Positions 1 to 19,158 of a stretch of DNA of 20,000 bases are shown here, piece after piece. Within the stretch, counting starts at the first letter, position 1, and each line of letters starts with the position of its first letter. Position numbers and translations under genes: made by a program. A model generated the notes under the pieces. The model saw only the letters and a program-made list of their open reading frames with translations. It was not told the DNA's origin and did no database searches. Source of the stretch: Basidioascus undulatus (lineage: Eukaryota); the NCBI GenBank assembly GCA_000826855.1, contig JTLS01000002.1, positions 53,061 through 73,060 on the forward strand, written 5' to 3'.

Positions 1-3000
1 GATGTCGCTTAGATGCATGGTCGACAAGGCGAACGACTGGATCGAGCGTGCGAGCTTCTTCCTGATCCGTAAGCAGCTTAAGCGCCGCGGCGGGGGGGCG
101 ACGACCGGCCGGCGCCGCGGGAGCGCTGTGCTCGAGGTCAAGGAGGAAGAAGAAGACGTGAAGGAGGAGGACCGCGCCCCGGAGCAGGTTTTTGCGCTCA
201 TCGCCGAGGTCGAGAAACTCCAGTTCGACGCGCCCGAGGTCGCCCAGATACGCCAGCTCGGCCAGCAGATCACCGACTACCGCACGCGCGCGAGCGCGGT
301 CCTCGCTCAGCCCGAACCGGCGCTCGAGACGTGCGAAGAGCTCGTCGTCATTGCGTCGACCATCAACGTCGAACTCGCCGAGGCGCAGCCGCTCGGGGAG
401 CTCACCGCACGCCTCCGCTGGCGCAAGCGCATCGCCGAGGCCGAGCTCGAGACGCTCTTCCTCCACGAGCTCAGCAAGCTTAGGACGGAGGGCGAAGACG
501 CAAGCATCGCGGCGGACGACCCGGCCATGGTTCAGCTCGAGCAGAAGCAGCGTATCGGCGAGGACTGGACCGCGAGGGCATCCGCAGCGCTCGAGCAGCC
601 AACCTGCAAGATCGAGGTCCTCGACGAGCTCCTTCAAAACTCCGACGTCGTCGACGCCGATCTCCTGCACAAGATCGAGACGCTCGTCACGCGCGCGCAC
701 GAGTGGGACGCGCAGTTGATCGCGCTCCTCCAGCGCGCGCAAGACGCGGAGAACCCAGACGCGAATGTCAAGCGGCCCACGCTCCTCGAGGTCCAGCGTC
801 TGCTCCGGAACATCAGAGGAAGCAACATCTCGTTCGACGCGGCCGACGAGCTTCGCGCGCAGATGGACATGCACAAGGCGTTTATCAAGGAGGCCGCGCA
901 GGTCTTCGGCCTTGACCAGCTGGGGCTCGAGGACATCAAGCTGGAGCGGCAGTTGACGATTTTGCTTGAGGACGTACGTGCTCTTGTTCGCTACGGTTTG
1001 GGCCATGGCTGTTGCTCACATGAGATGGAGACGCCCAACACAGACGCTCGCCAACATCCAGGCTAGGACGGCGCCGGACGACGATGTGCCCGCTCCGCCG
1101 GCGGCGCCTGCCGCGGTTATGTCGGCGCCTGTCCCGAACGGCAGCGTAAACGGGCGAGGCGCCGCTGTTCCTCCCGTGTCAGCCGCTGCGCCTCCCGCTC
1201 CGCCCGCGGCGCACACGTGCCTCTGCCGGTTGCCCGAGCACGGCACAATGTCTCTATGCATCGTCTGCGACGTCCGCTATCACTCGCCCTGCATCCAGAT
1301 CTACAATCGGACGATGAAGAAGGTAAGGCATTTGAACGCTTTTTGGCCTGCCATGACTGACGAACTGTGAGCCTCGCAGGGCAAGGATTTTGTCTGTCCC
1401 ATCTGCGACACGAAGAAGAAGCCGTTCGTTTACGAGCGCCCTCCGACGCTTGCGCGCCTCACCGAGCTCGTCGAAAACCCCGCGTACAAGTTCAAGTTCG
1501 TCTTCCCGCAGTACGAGTCGCTTCGCGCGATCGTGTCGTCGACGAAGCGCTTTGCGGACCTCCTCGCCGCCTTCTTCGCTCGGCCCGAGCAAGACCGTCG
1601 AGACGTGGAGCTCGTCAAGCACTACATGCGCAAGCTCGAGGGCTTCCACGTCGAGATCGCGCCGCCGGACGACCCGTCCTTTGTCTACGGCCCTCAGTTG
1701 CGCACGCTTCTGCATGGTCTCGTAGTGTCGACCGAGGGTGCGCAGCGGCGCAAATCCGGCGCGGGGTCGGTCCTAGCCGAGGAGGCGACGGCCGCCGTCG
1801 AGTCGCCCAGCGGCTCGCGCAAGCGCGCGCGCAAGCCGAAGGTCTACTTCGAGGAGGAGCCGCCCGCCCGAAGCGCGGCCGACCGCGAGCCGGACGTCAC
1901 GTACTGCCTCTGCCGCGGGAACCCGCCGTCACACCCGCAGGCGGACGACATGGCGATCGGCTGCGACCGCTGCTTCAACTGGTTCCACCTGCAGTGCGTC
2001 CACGTCCTCGACCACTTGCAGGAGCTGGACGGGAAACACTTCAGCGTGAGTAGCTTCCTTTAGTTGTCTGCTCACGCCCGAGCTAACTGCCTTTTTACTT
2101 TACAGTGTCCGTGCTGCGCGCTCAAGGCGAACAAGGAGTACAAGTACGCCGAGGTCCGAGTTCAAGACAAGGGTAAGCGGACTTACTCTTGGATGCCTTG
2201 AACGTCGGAGGCTTACGCCGGTTACCCTGCGCAGTCGACGTCGGCACCGATGTCTTCGTCGATCTCGATCAGACGATGAAGAAGCTAACCGAGCTCGTCA
2301 AGCGTTCGCTGCCACCGCCGGCCGATCCCAGCGACGTTATAAACCTGCAGATTCGCCGGTTCGTGCCGGGCGCTCCCGCGACGGTCGGCAAGGATGGCGC
2401 TGCTGCGTCTTGCGCCACCGCTCCCGCTGCGAAGAAGGTCAAGGACGAGCGTGGGGCGTCCGAGGCCTCGCTTCCACCGTCCGCGTCCTCGTTACAAACG
2501 CCTACCCCCGCGCTGGCCGGCCCGTCCGTGCGCGGCTCTACGGCACCGTATATGCCGTCCGTCTTCGCCCAGTCGGCCTCGCCGGCGCTGCCGCTTCTCG
2601 CTCCGAAGCCGGGCCCGCGCGACAACATCCCTCTGCCGGTGCACGATCGCCACGGCGCTCACCGCCACGCCTTCCCCAGTCCTCCGCCTGCCCCCTCGCA
2701 GACCTACACACCCGCAGTTGCCTCGGCAACGTCGACGCCGAGCTCGTCAGTGGCTAGCACGCCGGCTCCACCGCCGCGTCTGCCAGGACCGTCGAAGCGC
2801 CCCTCAACGGGCGACTACGACGCTCCCACGTCGCCGAAGCGGACACGGCACGACGGCGAAAGCGGGAATGGCTCAAGCTCGCCGGTGGGCAGTCACGAGC
2901 AGGTTCGTCAGACACTCAGGTCTATCTTGCCCAATCTCTCGGTCGACGATGTACGTGTTTGTCGCCGACTCGTGTGGCGCCGAATGTCTGCTGACGAATT

Positions 3001-3372
3001 CCTCGCTAGGTTGAGCGTCTCATCGCTACCAGCCAGCAGCTGCCGGCGCCCGCGATCCTCAGCGCCCCGGTTCTTCCTGGAGCTGCGCCGCTCACGGACG
3101 GCTTCATGCGCCACGACAGCCCCTCGTCCTTCAACTCTTCCTTCCCAACCCTTCCTCCCTACCTGAATCACCCCGCTTCCGCCTTCCCTTCGACTTCCTC
3201 TCCAATGAGCCCCTCTGCGCTGCCGACCACTCTCCCAACTCTCCCGCCGATGCACGTCCTGGAGCGCAATTTCGCGCCTCCGTACTCTTCAATACCTCCA
3301 CTGGACGACGCACCGTCAACAGGCGTTCCCGCTCCGCTCTTCCCACCGCCGTTCGGTGAAGAGCGCCGTTGA
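1..3372 (+). CDS. KDM5/JARID1 (Lid2-like) H3K4 histone demethylase, C-terminal portion (5' end lies outside the window): PLU-1-like helical region, two PHD fingers, Pro/Ser-rich tail
   Basis: Hand-spliced exons <1-973, 1044-1322, 1380-2045, 2106-2172, 2235-2950, 3010-3372 (TGA). All five introns are GT..AG, 57-70 nt, with branch motifs (gctcac, actgac, gctaac, gcttac, gctgac), and frame is preserved at every junction. The protein has the PLU-1-like segment 'VDKANDWIERASFFLIRKQ...VEKLQFDAPEVAQI' followed by two C4HC3 fingers: CLCRLPEHGTMSLCIVCDVRYHSPC...DFVCPIC and YCLCRG...MAIGCDRCFNWFHLQC...FSCPCC. The JmjC domain is not in the window, so the family call is inferred from domain order. Confidence 0.85.
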
Positions 3373-9038: not shown

Positions 9039-12000
9039 CTACATCCTAAACACCCCAAAGCCCACATCCTTCCCGTCCCAGCTCTCATGCCTCGGTCTGC
9101 CCGACGCGCGCCCGTCCTTCGCCGCGAGCGCCAGGCCGAGCCCGACGGCAGAGCGCGTTTCGTGAGGGAGGATGACTGTTGCGCTCCAGTGTCAGAGAAG
9201 ATCACAGGAGAATTGGAGTGGGAATATGAGGATTTAGGAAGGGAAGGGAAGAGGGAGGAAACGCACTCCCATCGTCCCACAGCCGCGCGGAAGCGTACAG
9301 CGCCGTCGACTGCGTGTCGATCTGCTCCCGCAGGGCGGCGTGCTTCGTCGGGTCACTGTTTCTCATCACAATTCCACCATAAATTCGGTAAATTATCGAA
9401 TACCATGAGCCAGACTTGAGGTGTTACGGACCTTGACACGGTATTCATGACCGATGAGAGCTGCTCGCCGCCCATGACGCCAACTTTCGCATTCTGCACA
9501 AACCCACATCGCGTGTTCAGCTTGCTTGCCTCTACAAATTCTACCTATAGTTTATAACTTACCGGCCACATCCACAAGAACCGCGGCGAGTACTGCGCGC
9601 GTTGCCGTCAGCTTAGGTTCTGCAACTGCAAAAAGGAGAGGACATACAGCGCGCCCGCACATGCCTGCTCAGAGGGAAAAGATTAGCATCAACTTGTGTT
9701 GCACTAACCTAATCAGTGTAAACGTAGACCGCACCGTAGTTACCCGCCCTGCCCTCCCCTCAGTCAGTCCGCGCGCTGAGCCTGATTTCAAAGCAGCTGC
9801 TCAGACTCACCCGAACGACCCGCCCACGACGACCGTAAACTTCGGCACGTCCGCGCACGCTACCGCCCTGACCTATCCGCTCCCACAAGGACTGAGTATG
9901 TACTCAAGATGGGCTCGAGCAGGGCAAGTGTAGCGCGCGCGAAGCAACGGACCATCTTCGCCCCGTCCTTTGCGATCCCGCCCCGCTCCGCCTTGCTGCC
10001 GACCATGTATCCTGGCCAACCATCACACCAACGCATCAGCTTCAGTTTCGTTGCCTCTACCCAGAACAAAAAATAATTGCTGACCCGTAACGTTCACCAT
10101 AAACAACAGCGGCACCTTACGCTGCGAGCAGAGCTCGATAAAGTGTGCGGCTTTCAGAGCAGAGGGGGAGAAGAGGATGCCGTTGTTTGCGATAATGCCC
10201 TTTTCTCCAGCCCTCGCAGTCAGTACTGCAGTCTCGAAGTGGACGAACAGGGACAGGCGGACGCACCACCGGGTACCCGTGCACCCTCGCAAAGCCCGTG
10301 ACGATCGTCGGGCCGTACGCCTTCTTGAACTCGTCAAAGCGCGAGCCGTCTACCACACGTGCAATCACGTCCTACAACCCCCTCCCCTCTCCAGTCAGTC
10401 AGCCAGCTCCCAGCGGGAAGCAGGGAGGAAGGCCCGCCCGACGCACACGCATGTCGAACGACCGCCGCGTATCGACGCCTACGATACCGCCGAGCTCCTC
10501 AGCCGGGTAGAGCGGGTCTTCAGCTGCGTACAGAGGTGTCTGTTTCATTTTTATTCTCTTGTTCAGCTCTGTCCGAAGGGTTGGAGGAAGGATGGGAGAA
10601 AAGCGCACCCCCGCGTTCAAAGGCACGTTCAGATTCGCCACTGCCCTCCGCGCCATCGAGAGCGCCTCGTCGTCCGATGAGGCGAGGTAGTCGGTCACGC
10701 CGCTCTGGAAACAAAAAACGGGAGTGGAAGAAGTTTTGGTCAGAAGGATGCAGGGGAGGCAGAGGAGGAGGTTCGGACACGCCTCGGAGGAATGCATCTC
10801 CCCACCGCCGAGGGTCTCTTCATCGACGACCTGAGAAGGCAGATGTGTCAGACGAAGCTTCGTTTGATGAGATGTAATGTGGGTGCGGGTGCCCACCTCG
10901 CCTGTGGCTGCTTTAACGAGCGGGGGTCCAGCGAGGAAGATGTGTCCTGCGTGGGCGGAATGAAAGTGTCAGACTGTGCCAGGCCGTCCAGCTCGCCGCT
11001 TTCGGGGTGCGAAGGTAAGAGTAAGTAACCCGTACCTTGTTGCCGCACGATGATAGTCTCATCTGACATAGCTGGTACGTACGCTCCGCCTGCACTCCCG
11101 TAAACGAATAAGCGAGTGAACATCAACGGCTTCCTGTCCCAACTTCGTCAACGCAACGCACCAGCCACCGAGATCCCATGTACGACCGAAATCTGCGGGA
11201 TTCCAAGGGCGGAGAGCTGGGACTGTTTATTCCCCCATCCACCAGCCGGACCTCTCATTAGCCGACGGACTTGTCGTTGAGTTACGGGAGGCGCACCATA
11301 TTGTAGAAGATCCGCCCGAAGTGCTGTGCGCCTGGGAAGACGTCCGCTTGGTGCGGGAGAGCGGCGCCGCCGGACTCCACTGGGTAAAAAGGCTCAGGTC
11401 AGAGACGGTGGAAGCGTTAGGGACAGAGGAATGGGAGAGGGGGGGAGAGGCAATGACTGTACCGAGGTAGACGCAGGGCAGCCGGTTCTCTCGCGCGATC
11501 TCTTGCGCGCGGAGGTGCTTCTTAACCTGTGTGGTTTTGGTGAAGCAGATAGGTTTAGGAAGGGGGTTCGGGCTTAAAAAATGTGGGAAACGGGAGGTGG
11601 AAGGAACAAGACGCACAGAAAGCGGGTAGTACGACCCTCCCTTGACAGTCGCGTCGTTCACGACGACCATGCATTCCACGCTGTCCAAACCATCCTTGTC
11701 AATTCGATGGATCCCTCGTCCCACAAAAGTCTTGAAAGCGCACCCCGATATCCGCCCCACGCCCGTAATGATCCCCGCGCCGGGCACGTCCTCGCCGGGA
11801 TACACCTCGTGCGCCGCGAACTGGCTGAGCTCGAGAAACGGCGAGTGCGGGTCGAGGAGCTTTCCCAGTCTGTCCCCCTCCAACACCCTCATCAGCTTCT
11901 TTCTCCCCACTTCCCCTTTCCTTCCCCGGACGCAACACACCTCTCCCTCGGCAACAGCTTCCCCGCCTCACGATGCTTCTTCCGCGAGCGCTCGCTGCCC

Positions 12001-14720: not shown

Positions 14721-15138
14721 CGTTACTGACGAATTCTACCGTCATTGCCCCAGAAATGAATCCCACCCGGCTTGTTCTTGCTGATTGAAGTAGAGTCTCC
14801 AGTCCCTTGCACTACAGTATAAATTTGGCGACCCTCGCGACTGCACAACACTCGTCCAGCTTTGCCAGCCGGGACCGTGCATACGCCCATGCCGATCTTT
14901 TGCCGAGTTACCGACGGCCGTGCTGATCCGAAAGTCATCCTCCTGCCTCAACATCTTTATCAGCTTGCCTGGTCCGGGTTCCCCCTCATGTACACGACCA
15001 TTGTTGATATTCTCTTTCCCTTCATTCCGCTCCTCCTCCCGACCCTAGCTCAGCCGCCGATACCCCGGAGCACTTTGACCTTCTCGCGGCGCGCGGGCAC
15101 CTTCCTTGATTCCTCTTTGACCCCGCAGCTGCCTGAGC

Positions 15139-18100
15139 ATGCGCCCTGCCGCATCTCTCATCGCGTCTTCCACGCTCGAATCACGCCGTACTGCCATATA
15201 TGTGGAAGAGGACGTGGAGCGGGGCGGAGTGCCTGGAGGGACTGGGAAGCGTGATGTCGATGGGGGTGGGGAGAAGGGGTTGGAGAAGGAGGTGATCGTA
15301 GATTGGGACGGAATAGAAACAGATCCTGAATGTCCACTGTGCGTTTTCTTTATCTTCCCTTCCAGCCAAATGCCATTTTGTTGTCACGAGAGGCTCATGA
15401 TGTGAGGAATGCGAACGCAAAGAAACTGGCCCCGCTCAAAGAAATGGGCTGTAACCTGCCTCGTCTCGTCTTTTAGCCTCAGCACCACCATTGCAGCGGC
15501 TATTGTTTCCCCTGCGGCCGCTCAAGTTGCAAGGGATTTCGATATATCAGGGAGTGTTGAGGCAAGTGGGTGGTCTGCGTGTGTATGAGTGAGAGTTGTA
15601 TATATATAAGCTCACGCTAGGGGCTGGGGAACCAGACTACTTTAACTTTCTCAGTCTTCGTGTAAGTTCCGGTCTTCTGTCAAATTTCGAGGCATGGCAT
15701 CGACTTAGTCCTTGTGTCTTGCGAGCTGACGACCTGGCTCACTCCGCGCGCTCACAGCCTGGGTTTCGCAGTGGGGCGTGCGTCCTTCTCACCTGCCTTC
15801 GCCCACCGTCTTACCTCCGAAGCTCGTACCAACCCGCTGGTCCTTCTCTCCGATTATTTTTCTCTGGGAATTTTTCCCTCGCAGCCCTGTTATTTGCGCC
15901 CTTTTCCGAGATGTACGGCCGCATCCGAGTCCTGCAATTCGCAAACATGTGCGTTACCTCCCTTTCACTCCCTACTCTCCCTTCTTGATTATATTGCCAA
16001 AATTTGGACGACCGCTAACGGTCCGTGACGTGCGCAGATTCTTCTTTGCCTTCAACTTTGGCTGCGCGTGGGCTCAAACGAAGGGCGAGCTGATAGCGTT
16101 CCGGTCCGTCCCCCTTCCTTCTCTTTATCCTCCCCCTGCTTATTTCATATTCTCCCCTTGACGTATGCTGACCCAGAACAATAGGTTCCTGGCAGGTATA
16201 GGCGGCGGGGCCCCGATCGTCGTGGGTCTCTCTTGTCGTCCCTTGTTGAACGCGGCGCGTGGAACCGATACTAACTGGAATGTGCATTCCTGGCGCCGGT
16301 GTACAGCTGTATGTAGAGTTGGGATTGTTTTTACACACGATATTGACCAAATCTCAGCGGTGGGGGCGTTCTTGGGGACATCTGGCGCGCGCATGAACGC
16401 GGCCTGGCGATCGCAGTGTACTCTTCAGCACGTGCGTCTGCGTCTTGCTTCTTCCAACCTCTATTTTGACTCCATATCGTGAACTGAACAAACCATTCCC
16501 CCGCAGCTGTACTCGGGCCCGGCCTGGCCCCGCTACTCGGAGGGTGGATAGCTGAGAAGTCCACATGGCGGTGGGCGTGTGCGTCAATTTCCTCTTGCTT
16601 TTGGCCCACTTCATGCTTCCTAGACATGCCAAAGCGGGCTGACTGACCCCTCCTGTACACCTGCAATGCAGTCTGGTCCACCTCTATCGTCGCCTTCCTC
16701 CTCGAAGCGCTTTCCCTCATCCTCCTCCGCGAGTCCTACCACCCCACGCTCCTCGCGCGGCGCGCACGAAGGTTGCAGAAAGCCTCAGGAGCCGGCGGTG
16801 TCAGGTATCGCAGCCGGTATGATACGGGGGACCGGTCCGTGATGGGTGTCGTTACGAAGAACCTGGTGCGTTGCTGCCAGAGGGCTGGGGGTGTTGGGGC
16901 TGAAGATGAGATTCAAGAGAAAATGTTGATTAGAGTGGTGTATAGAGTCGCCCCTGGATGCTGGTAGCTAGACAGCCGATTCTGGTCGCTATCATGCTGT
17001 GTGCGTCTTTCGTTCGTGGCCGGCGGGACTGGGCCGGTGCGATAGGCTGACAGGAGGACATGCAGACATGATGCTGGCGTATGGGATGATATACACTATC
17101 CTGCCCAGTGCGTATCCCCTCACGCTACGTCAAGCAGTCCAGAAGCTGAAACTCAGATGGGATGGGGTGGATAGTCGTCTCCACCGTCTTCGAGAACGTC
17201 TACCACCAATCCACCGGAATCGCGTCTCTCCAGTGCGTCTTGTCTTTTGTCTTTACCCTTTTCTCATTCGACTCCTTCCCGAATTCCTGACCTCCTCCCC
17301 TTCACCACGCAGCTTTATCGCGCTCTGTCCGTAACCTCCTCCCTCTTCCCCTCCTCTCTGCCTGAACGTCCTCCCACACCATACAGCCCTCGGCCTCTTC
17401 ATCACCGCCCAGACGCACGCGCGCGCGCTTGATATTCTTTACTCCCGACTCTCCCGCCATAACGGTGGGGCAGGCAAGCCCGAGTTCCGCCTGGCGCTTG
17501 TAGGGCTCAGCTTTGCGCTGCCGGTGGGTACGCCGGTTTCCTCTCTCACTTCCTTCTCGGGCGACCGAGACGATTGACTCGTTCTGGCGGCGGATCAAGG
17601 CCTCGCAATATTTGGCTGGGTCGCCGAATTCGAGAAGCACTGGATCGGCGCGGACATAGGGCTCGTGCTGGTGGGCGCGGGCATCGTGGTTGTGTTTCAG
17701 GCGCTGCAGGCTTATGTGCGTCTTGTGCCTCTTTTATTTCGAGCGATTAGTATTCACCAGCATCGATTTGCGCTCAAAGGTCATCGACGCTTTTACCCTC
17801 CACGCTGCATCTGCCCTGGCGTCCATCAACTGCGCCAGGGCCATTGCGGCGTTCGCGCTGCCACTGGCTGTCCGTGCGTCGTTTTCTGTCTCTCCTGTTT
17901 AAACGGTTCAAGCCGCCTCCAGATTACTAACAAGGCCTTCTTATGGTGTAGCGTCCTTGTTTTCTACCCTAGGATATGGATGGGGTTGTCGTGCGTCCAC
18001 CTCTTATTCTCCCCCGCTGTCGCTCAGGCTCACACCGTGCGACGGGTTCAACAGAGCTACTTTGTTTCCTCGGACTCGCGCTCGGACTTCCGGCCGGGCC

Positions 18101-18158
18101 GCTCCTGTACTTCTACGGAGAGAGGTTACGGAAAATGTCCAGAGCGGCAGTGCCGTAG
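15139..18158 (+). CDS. MFS transporter, DHA1 (drug:H+ antiporter-1) family, ~518 aa
   Basis: 20 exons: 15139-15338, 15423-15561, 15636-15661, 15758-15777, 15885-15948, 16038-16103, 16185-16221, 16307-16308, 16358-16431, 16507-16578, 16672-16865, 16946-17000, 17066-17107, 17175-17232, 17313-17326, 17387-17527, 17600-17715, 17780-17873, 17952-17990, 18055-18158. Total 1557 nt. Motifs: VDWDG..DPECPLNWPRSKKW, GPLLFAPFSEMYGR (motif A region), FRFLAGIGG, GGGVLGDIW..ERG, LGPGLAPLLGGWI (antiporter motif C), WRWAFW, PEFRL, YVIDAF, LGYGWG, YGERLR. The start codon is uncertain, since an upstream exon spliced to the CAG at 15126-15128 is possible. Confidence 0.92.
15562..15635 (+). other. GC-AG intron in the MFS gene
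   Basis: GAG|GCAAGT donor, gctcac branch site, accag acceptor. Joins SGSVE to TTLTFSVFV in frame. Confidence 0.82.
16307..16308 (+). other. 2-nt micro-exon (CT) in the MFS gene
   Basis: Context is actaac...gtaCAG|CT|GTATGT...attgac...ctCAG|C. The CT is needed to join APIV to GGGVLGDIW in frame (CT+C = Leu). Confidence 0.8.
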
Positions 18159-19158
18159 CTTTTGTACTTGTCGTTGCATTGATAACTCATTACGGGAGTC
18201 TGAGGTTGTGAACTTGAGGGTCAAGAGGCATGCATGTATCGTTTGAGTTGCACACGCAGTGGATGTGGCATAGAGTCGGGCAATTTGCCTGAATAACTGC
18301 GAGGTGTCGAAGCGTTACCATTCATGAAGTTACTTCCTAGCCGTACTTCAAGAGGACGGGGAGTAAAAAGCCCGAAAAGATGCTTGGAAGTGCAAGTCAA
18401 TGAAAGCATGCCTTCGAGGCCAGCGCAAAGTCGCCGGCCTCGATTGGACGCAAAAGAGACAACCCCTAAGACGAGTTCGAGTGAGATATCCAGATGAGCG
18501 AACGTCAGGGGTAGACACGGTGTGGTGAAATTGAGTATGAACTGGGCGTGAGCGCGAATGCTTGCGTAAGATGTGGGACGAAGAATCAACTGCGGGTGGG
18601 GATTCCTACCTGTTGAGCGCCAGAAGGGGCAACCAGAGCTGAGGCTGGGGATGGGTGTGTCAACAGGCCACCAGCACCCAGGGAATGTCCTTTAAGCTTG
18701 GATAATGCTATGTAACGTCGTCTGCATGTGTTGGAAACATAACCCGCTGCGACTCAGGCAGCTATGCAAGGACGTCGGGTGCTAACGACTATACGGAGAG
18801 GCTGTCTGGACCTGGCGGCCGAGCCAAGGTAAGTAGGTTTCCGAAAATACTCTATGAACTCTTTGTTCTTACTCTTGAAAGCACGCACGACGCGATCCGC
18901 TGGGGCTAGAGAGAAAGTGGGAGACTGCAGCTCGAAAGAAACGTCAGAGTCTTTTCACCTTAAGCTACCTGTTTGGCACAATTTTTACAAAAACTTCGAA
19001 AGCATTGCGGATCCGCGAAGGACTGCCCACGGGCGTGGCCCAGCGGGTCCCATTCCTTGCACCTGGAGCCGTGCAGCTCGCTCTGCACTGAACCGCCACC
19101 ATCTCCTCGACCCGACCTCCCCTCCTCACGCTCTCATCCCGCTCACCCAGCCTCGAAC

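Follow-up and report, generated by a model that had tools for sequence, protein, structure and literature searches.

This work concerns a predicted transporter gene of the Major Facilitator Superfamily (MFS) located in a 20,000-nucleotide stretch of DNA from Basidioascus undulatus (contig JTLS01000002.1), which is referred to here as the window and whose first letter is taken as position 1. The gene, which is drug:H+ antiporter-like and is built of 20 exons, is likely to contain a real internal exon of only two nucleotides, the dinucleotide CT at positions 16307-16308. This reading is based on the reading frame, the spacing observed in homologues, the profile score, the splice signals, the intron lengths and two DNA data sets. 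The window was compared with the contigs of three sequencing runs: X1 (2014) and X2 (2025) are DNA runs from two samples and studies, while X3 shares its sample with X2 and, although labelled 'DNA?', behaves like RNA, as it yields spliced contigs. The proposed exon lies between exons 7 and 9 of the gene, in the following arrangement:

16185..16221, + strand: exon 7, 37 nucleotides (nt), encoding (R)FLAGIGGGAPIV and ending in phase 0; without X3 cover
16222..16306, + strand: proposed intron 7, 85 nt, with donor GTGGGT, TACTAAC at 16269-16275 and acceptor CAG at 16304-16306
16307..16308, + strand: proposed exon CT, 2 nt, giving CTC (Leu) together with the C at 16358
16309..16357, + strand: proposed intron 8, 49 nt, with donor GTATGT, TTGAC at 16343-16347 and acceptor CAG at 16355-16357
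16358..16431, + strand: exon 9, 74 nt, encoding (x)GGGVLGDIWRAHERGLAIAVYSSA, its first base being codon position 3; covered by X3 record 5

The first-pass annotation, made from the letters alone, had located all these elements correctly; its first branch motif, read as ACTAAC at 16270-16275, is in fact part of a full TACTAAC starting at 16269, and its second one, ATTGAC, lies at 16342-16347.

The Phase Gap between Exons 7 and 9

The final codon of exon 7, GTC, is complete at 16221, and GTGGGT begins at 16222. The frame of this exon is fixed by homology to an intronless MFS gene (locus L001, described below), to which exon 7 aligns in a tblastn comparison over RFLAGCAGAAPLT, with ...LIAF-R-FLAGIGGGAPIV in the window gene facing ...MLVGF-R-FLAGCAGAAPLT in the homologue. 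On the downstream side, record 5 of the X3 contigs (1098 nt) aligns from its third letter, beginning at 16358 and continuing via 11 further exons past the stop codon, which confirms that the acceptor at 16357 is used in the transcript. The two letters of this record that stand 5' of 16358 do not continue into the genomic AG. Since exon 7 ends in phase 0 and 16358 occupies codon position 3, two bases are lacking between both exons, so that the 2-nt phase gap previously noticed is real, one of its edges being set by homology and the other by a spliced contig. It was also correctly anticipated that skipping of CT shifts the frame, as the direct join of 16221 to 16358 runs into a stop 12 codons into exon 9. 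The alignment to the L001 homologue gives the same measure at the protein level, with exactly one residue lacking in the window gene.

Protein Family and the Three-Residue Spacer

The homologues that define the expected protein were collected from several sources. A metagenome scan with exon 11 of the gene led to two loci, L001 (3230-4849, + strand) and L002, which lie on contigs of more than 100 kb, carry a Pleosporales-like, intronless MFS gene of 539 amino acids (aa) and match exon 11 at 34% identity. The 539-aa homologue shares 92% identity with a protein listed by one source as an Alternaria alternata membrane transporter, and its relatives are Dothideomycete MFS proteins with the domains PF07690 and PF00083. 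When exon 11 was compared with 1.84 billion representatives, two matches were found, P0121 (52% identity) and P0122 (45% identity), both of them fragments. Direct matches to PF07690 were obtained for L001 (E 8e-50) and P0121 (E 6e-30). The individual exons of the window gene are too short for such a comparison: one of nine reached E 0.002 against PF07690, below the cut-off, and searches of longer proteins with exon 11 (63 aa) or with exon 2 (46 aa) returned no significant match. Once joined, the exons encode a protein of 518 aa; compared with a profile of 49 PF07690-carrying homologues, it scores 419.3 bits (E 7e-129), and by this indirect test, via the homologue profile, the predicted product can be placed in the MFS (PF07690, MFS_1). 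Some sources call the homologues 'multidrug resistance protein'. We take the DHA1 drug:H+ antiporters (TCDB 2.A.1.2) to be proteins with 12 transmembrane (TM) segments and a TM5 motif of the G-x-x-x-G-P-x-x-G-G type; the check relevant to this subfamily in the window gene was confined to the local P-xxx-GxG-xxx-D spacing.

The collected proteins share this spacing almost without exception. The pattern R-h-h-x-G-x-x-G-x-x-P-(spacer)-G-x-G-x-x-x-D is found with a spacer of exactly three residues in 120 of the 122 homologues, the unmatched ones being P0057 and P0122, the latter a fragment that starts past the motif. Within these 120 proteins, the third spacer position holds L (65 proteins), I (52), M (2) or F (1). 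The window gene reads P-I-V-?-G-G-G, and CT together with the C at 16358 supplies Leu, the commonest residue at this position. The profile of 49 homologues also separates the possible products: the CT-containing model obtains 419.3 bits versus 407.5, 404.4, 403.0 and 395.0 bits for models with inserted residues, and the truncated product of the frameshift obtains 146.4 bits.

Splice Signals, Intron Lengths and Chance Expectation

The strength of the splice sites was expressed in bits, using a matrix derived from the 17 other introns of the MFS gene. In intron 7, the donor scores 3.6 bits and the acceptor 6.8 bits, the latter being the first AG past TACTAAC and lying 32 nt downstream of the branch A. 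In intron 8, the donor GTATGT scores 4.6 bits and the branch A of TTGAC is located 11 nt before the intron end. In this in-silico test both introns flanking CT are complete, each having donor, branch, acceptor and a viable length. Only two copies of TACTAAC are present on the + strand of the 20-kb window; each lies in an intron of the MFS gene, and the one outside intron 7 sits in an intron confirmed by RNA. Regarding length, the other 17 introns span 60-107 nt (1329 nt in total); an undivided intron of 136 nt exceeds all of them, and the 85 nt of intron 7 fall within the range. The donor hexamer GTGCGT is present in 12 of the 17 other introns, and those around CT have GTGGGT and GTATGT instead.

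The frequency with which such an arrangement arises by accident was estimated from 100,000 Markov-simulated introns of 136 nt, in which an internal AG-NN-GT had to leave two sub-introns of at least 45 nt. A bare internal AG-NN-GT appeared in 12.5% of the simulated introns, and one in which both site scores were at least 0 bits in 2.1%. With thresholds set post hoc, the fraction fell to 0.023% for arrangements scoring as well as the real site, and to 0.002% when branch motifs were demanded in addition. In the 17 other introns of the gene there are three bare AGNNGT, none of them with a good donor. The AG-CT-GT arrangement exceeds chance. Elsewhere in the window, the sole other site reaching the strict AG-NN-GT scores is AAG-CC-GTCCGT, at about 3095-3110 on the - strand.

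These figures bear on a first alternative, in which the 136 nt are spliced out as one intron (donor at 16222, TTGAC, acceptor at 16357), the transcript is frameshifted, the gene is a recent pseudogene or produces an mRNA mostly targeted by nonsense-mediated decay, and AG-CT-GTATGT is a coincidence. The donor at 16222 and the acceptor at 16357 are canonical and able to pair, bare AGNNGT is common, as seen both in the simulation and in the other introns, no X3 contig extends over exons 5-7, and the two X3 letters before 16358 would also fit the TC that ends exon 7. Nevertheless, none of the 19 other exons is damaged, and the X3 contigs show expression and correct splicing for at least 15 of them. 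Moreover, the joint internal signals are improbable by chance (0.002-2%), the length of 136 nt is an outlier for the gene, and the gap equals exactly one residue of a conserved motif in which CT supplies the consensus Leu. On balance, removal of the whole segment as one intron is considered unlikely.

Alternative Routes from Exon 7 to Exon 9

The remaining possibilities for joining both exons were enumerated. There are 25 single introns of the GT-AG or GC-AG type that lead from exon 7 to exon 9 and keep the downstream frame. Ten of them contain stops; ten others employ an acceptor at 16416, thereby deleting exon 9 sequence that is present in the X3 contig; and the last five, which use the acceptor at 16357, expand the spacer between P and GGG from 3 to 10-28 residues with donors of -8.1 to -2.4 bits. 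Nested solutions of the stwintron type were enumerated for the donor-disrupted types, and none of the nine that are in frame keeps the three-residue spacer. The first-pass annotation had offered, as a finding that would speak against it, an mRNA that lacks CT and stays in frame through other sites; the enumerated single and nested introns fail on stops, on the RNA or on the spacer. As for solutions with two introns, 21 are open; when these are ranked by the sum of their site scores, CT is the middle exon in each of the top three. The CT model with the donor at 16222 reaches a sum of 15.2 bits and is the sole two-intron model that fits the protein family. Judged from these enumerations, CT appears to be the only canonical route that maintains both the frame and the three-residue spacer.

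The five single introns and the open two-intron solutions are the basis of a second alternative, according to which other canonical sites yield an in-frame product with extra residues between APIV and GGG. Examples are the pairing of GTTGAA at 16245 or GTGTAC at 16299 with the acceptor at 16357, and the use of a GC donor, GCGCGT at 16255, in combination with the CT exon. Such combinations are open and in frame, as the frame of exon 7 is open across the whole region, and a GC-AG intron exists in the same gene (15562-15635). The GC donor at 16255 scores 5.7 bits, and the model that contains it has the highest two-intron sum (17.4 versus 15.2 bits), while adding 11 residues. Against these products, the spacer of three residues found in all 120 matched homologues would become 10-28 residues long, the profile score drops by 12-24 bits, and the two GT donors score -8.1 and -2.4 bits. 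In addition, a join at 16298 ends in G, and if the aligner behaves as expected the X3 contig should then have aligned one base further, whereas the variant with the donor at 16255 needs the CT exon anyway. An insertion of this kind is regarded as very unlikely.

Evidence from Transcript-Derived and Genomic Contigs

It has been mentioned that X3 record 5 starts two letters ahead of exon 9. These letters are compatible with a transcript bearing CT, without constituting proof of it. A de Bruijn-graph contig would be expected to begin at CT if fully spliced forms and forms retaining intron 7 coexist. The gap of X3 contigs over exons 5-7 decides nothing either way.

The same two letters enter into a third alternative, namely a non-canonical splice in which exon 7 extends to 16223 (...GTC GT) and is followed by a GG-AG intron, giving APIV-V-GGG. 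This event would restore the frame with a hydrophobic residue and would fit two unaligned letters ending in T before 16358. However, the 14 introns confirmed by RNA in this gene are, without exception, GT-AG or GC-AG, Val occupies the corresponding position in none of the 120 homologues, and the internal set of splice signals would be left unexplained. We regard a GG-AG intron as less likely still than an insertion.

Finally, the phase gap might derive from an assembly or sequencing indel at an exon edge, the true gene having one intron, a possibility that had also been put forward in the first-pass annotation as a potential objection. Phase conflicts in draft genomes usually stem from indels, and this is the sole point in its favor. 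The DNA contigs of X1 and X2 contain no differences or indels relative to the window over 15100-18200, with the limit that the window may derive from either of these runs, at most one of which is thus fully independent. Because two DNA data sets agree letter for letter, an assembly indel at the site is unlikely. Furthermore, the X3 contig is identical to exon 9, and at the edges of both exons the alignment to homologues reaches the splice sites. An indel is the least likely of the explanations considered here.

Several observations weigh against a two-nucleotide exon at this site, in addition to the higher sum of the model with the GC donor. With 3.6 and 4.6 bits, the two donors rank below 15 of the other 17, most of which are GTGCGT at 8-12 bits. 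At 49 nt, intron 8 would be the shortest of the gene, the next minimum being 60 nt. The strict thresholds of the simulation were picked after the site had been seen, and the lenient estimate of chance is 2%. The looser pattern AGNNGTRNGT shows no enrichment across the window, with 4 occurrences versus 3.3 expected. Of the 122 homologues, 120 are orthologues of one Dothideomycete protein, about 30% identical to the window gene, so that the spacing is drawn from few independent lineages; L001 and L002, the only loci obtained in the metagenome scan, are distant and intronless and inform about spacing, not about intron conservation. The two X3 letters also fit other upstream ends, such as the TC of exon 7 joined to exon 9. 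Lastly, the junction of exon 7, CT and exon 9 is seen in no X3 contig, and none covers 15778-16357. The product APIV-L-GGGVLGDIW proposed in the first-pass annotation consequently stands as the best-supported one by frame, spacing, profile and signals, with its junction unseen in RNA.

A Proposed Order of Events

The favored explanation is that the apparent 136-nt intron would consist of two ordinary U2-type introns of 85 and 49 nt, each of them recognized on its own through intron definition, the mode to be expected for short introns in fungi. They would be removed one after the other, and either order would leave a normal substrate: if intron 7 is excised first, ...GTC-CT|GTATGT would remain, and if intron 8 is excised first, ...TACAG|CT-CGG would remain. 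The mature mRNA would then read ...ATC GTC CTC GGT GGG..., with Leu in the conserved P-x-x-x-G-x-G segment. We infer from these elements that CT is joined in the mRNA by sequential splicing. The sequential removal of two intron-defined introns suffices to account for the site, and nothing more exotic is needed.

An additional layer of control, in which the inclusion of CT is regulated, as in the on/off switch through nonsense-mediated decay suggested by the first-pass annotation, is speculative and improbable. In such a scheme, removal in two steps would generate a functional transporter, and removal of the 136 nt in one step would lead to a stop 12 codons on and likely to decay of the transcript, so that splicing would act as the switch for the transporter. 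The idea draws on GTGGGT and GTATGT, two weak donors that are exceptions in a gene mostly using GTGCGT and that would allow a choice. The break of X3 two letters before exon 9, together with the gap over exons 5-7, could reflect mixed forms with respect to CT.

Organization of the MFS Gene

The gene to which the CT exon is assigned comprises the following features, in addition to those listed above:

15139..18158, + strand: coding part of the MFS transporter gene, 20 exons and 19 introns, with a 518-aa frame when CT is included
15636..15661, + strand: exon of 26 nt, RNA-confirmed (X3)
15758..15777, + strand: exon 4, 20 nt, RNA-confirmed (X3)
15778..15884, 15949..16037 and 16104..16184, + strand: three introns placed solely by homology and canonical sites
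17313..17326, + strand: microexon of 14 nt, flanked by CAG and GTCCGT, within X3 joint 17232/17387

The ATG is located at 15139 and the stop codon at 18156-18158 on the + strand. When the exons are joined by their coordinates, CT included, a single open frame is obtained whose sole stop is at its end. The spliced X3 contigs are equal to the window, without any difference, and contain 13 joints that confirm 14 introns of the gene. Twelve joints are listed as GT..AG, one of which holds 14 letters between its sides, and the remaining one, which has two ambiguous bases, as AG..CC. If the latter joint is moved by these two bases, it can be read as a GC-AG intron (15562-15635) whose donor, GCAAGT, is alone among those of the 14 confirmed introns in not beginning with GT. 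The 14-nt microexon, which lies between introns of 80 and 60 nt, is evidence that very short exons are spliced in this organism. The X3 contigs break within exon 1 (15281-15317, + strand) and stop precisely where the 20-nt exon 4 ends (15777), and none is assembled over exons 5-7, for which an isoform mixture, low depth or filtering may be responsible.

Other Genes in the Window

At the beginning of the window (2-3200, + strand), open frames match the PLU-1-like domain PF08429 (E 5.5e-48) and the PHD finger PF00628 (E 4.8e-4, below the cut-off); this region resembles the 3' part of a KDM5/JARID-type gene. On the - strand, open frames at 10399-11967 match the carboxyl transferase domain PF01039 (E 1e-7 and 2e-6), and this locus is an intron-split gene of the acyl-CoA carboxylase beta type.

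Relationship to Known Ultra-Short Exons and Multistep Splicing

If the CT exon is real, gene models in which it is missing would truncate, frameshift or distort the transporter, making the locus a test case for annotation pipelines. The expectation that gene predictors mis-model such sites is in agreement with what the reports cited below describe. The locus would also illustrate the independent recognition of short fungal introns separated by two bases, and it would add an MFS transporter to the ultra-short exons of fungi, which are reported to be enriched in P450 genes in Coprinopsis cinerea and include one P450 case in Fusarium.

A close parallel is found in the basidiomycete C. cinerea, for which the long-read annotation lists 13 exons of one nucleotide, 57 of two nucleotides (in 50 genes) and 27 of three nucleotides (PMC12230235). 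According to the same report, omission of exons of 3 nt or less mostly results in premature stops, and the enrichment concerns P450 genes, unlike the MFS transporter of the window. Both situations involve a fungus rich in short introns, internal exons no longer than 3 nt and automatic gene models that are broken at these sites. They differ in the type of evidence, since the exons of C. cinerea come from full-length transcript reads, whereas the one proposed here is deduced from frame, homology and signals, plus a contig end compatible with it. In a phrase search of the literature for two-nucleotide exons, the papers listed contained no natural fungal case; the C. cinerea paper covers the subject in other wording.

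The reasoning followed here resembles that applied to CYP621A of Fusarium, in which an exon of one nucleotide was found by phase-conflict logic and confirmed in reads of the Sequence Read Archive (SRA), and is conserved in 20-24 orthologues (PMC12940212). In both cases, the exons are out of phase, an intronless homologue defines the gap, a strictly spaced motif is involved and predictors miss the exon, the Fusarium candidate being AG-N-GT (1 nt) rather than the 2 nt of the window. The Fusarium paper further mentions known exons of 2-5 bp in Arabidopsis, Drosophila and humans (PMC12940212). In plants, the one-nucleotide exons of APC11 and VPS55 have been validated by experiment (GFP fusions, RT-PCR) and are deeply conserved (PMC4674806, PMC8831610). 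Like the proposed CT exon, they are ultra-short, lie between two complete introns and are needed for the correct protein; they are described as constitutive and absent from reference annotations, and differ in being plant exons with experimental proof. The first-pass annotation was thus right in placing CT near the lower limit for an exon, but this size is not new, in view of the one-nucleotide exons of Fusarium and Arabidopsis and the 57 two-nucleotide exons of C. cinerea.

Two other systems share with the window a removal in consecutive steps. Drosophila ratchet points have an AG beside a GT inside a longer intervening sequence that is removed in two steps, but they are reported to leave nothing in the mRNA, to regenerate the 5' site and to occur in very long introns (bioRxiv 10.1101/006163). 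At the window site two bases would be retained, the donor pre-exists and both proposed introns are short, so that the recursive-like splicing previously suggested does not apply: GTATGT is already present and the two bases would stay in the mRNA. Stwintrons of filamentous fungi likewise involve two contiguous introns and consecutive reactions, but in them a splice signal of the external intron is split by the internal one, with no exon in between (PMC6616335, PMC12403724), whereas neither intron 7 nor intron 8 has its signals interrupted by the other. The site corresponds, then, neither to a recursive (zero-nucleotide) site nor, judged from the donor-disrupted types enumerated, to a stwintron, and has the sequence features of a putative ultra-short microexon, with AG/GT flanks, complete flanking introns and restoration of both frame and homology. 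No new mechanism is involved, as exons of one and two nucleotides are already documented with RNA in fungi and plants.

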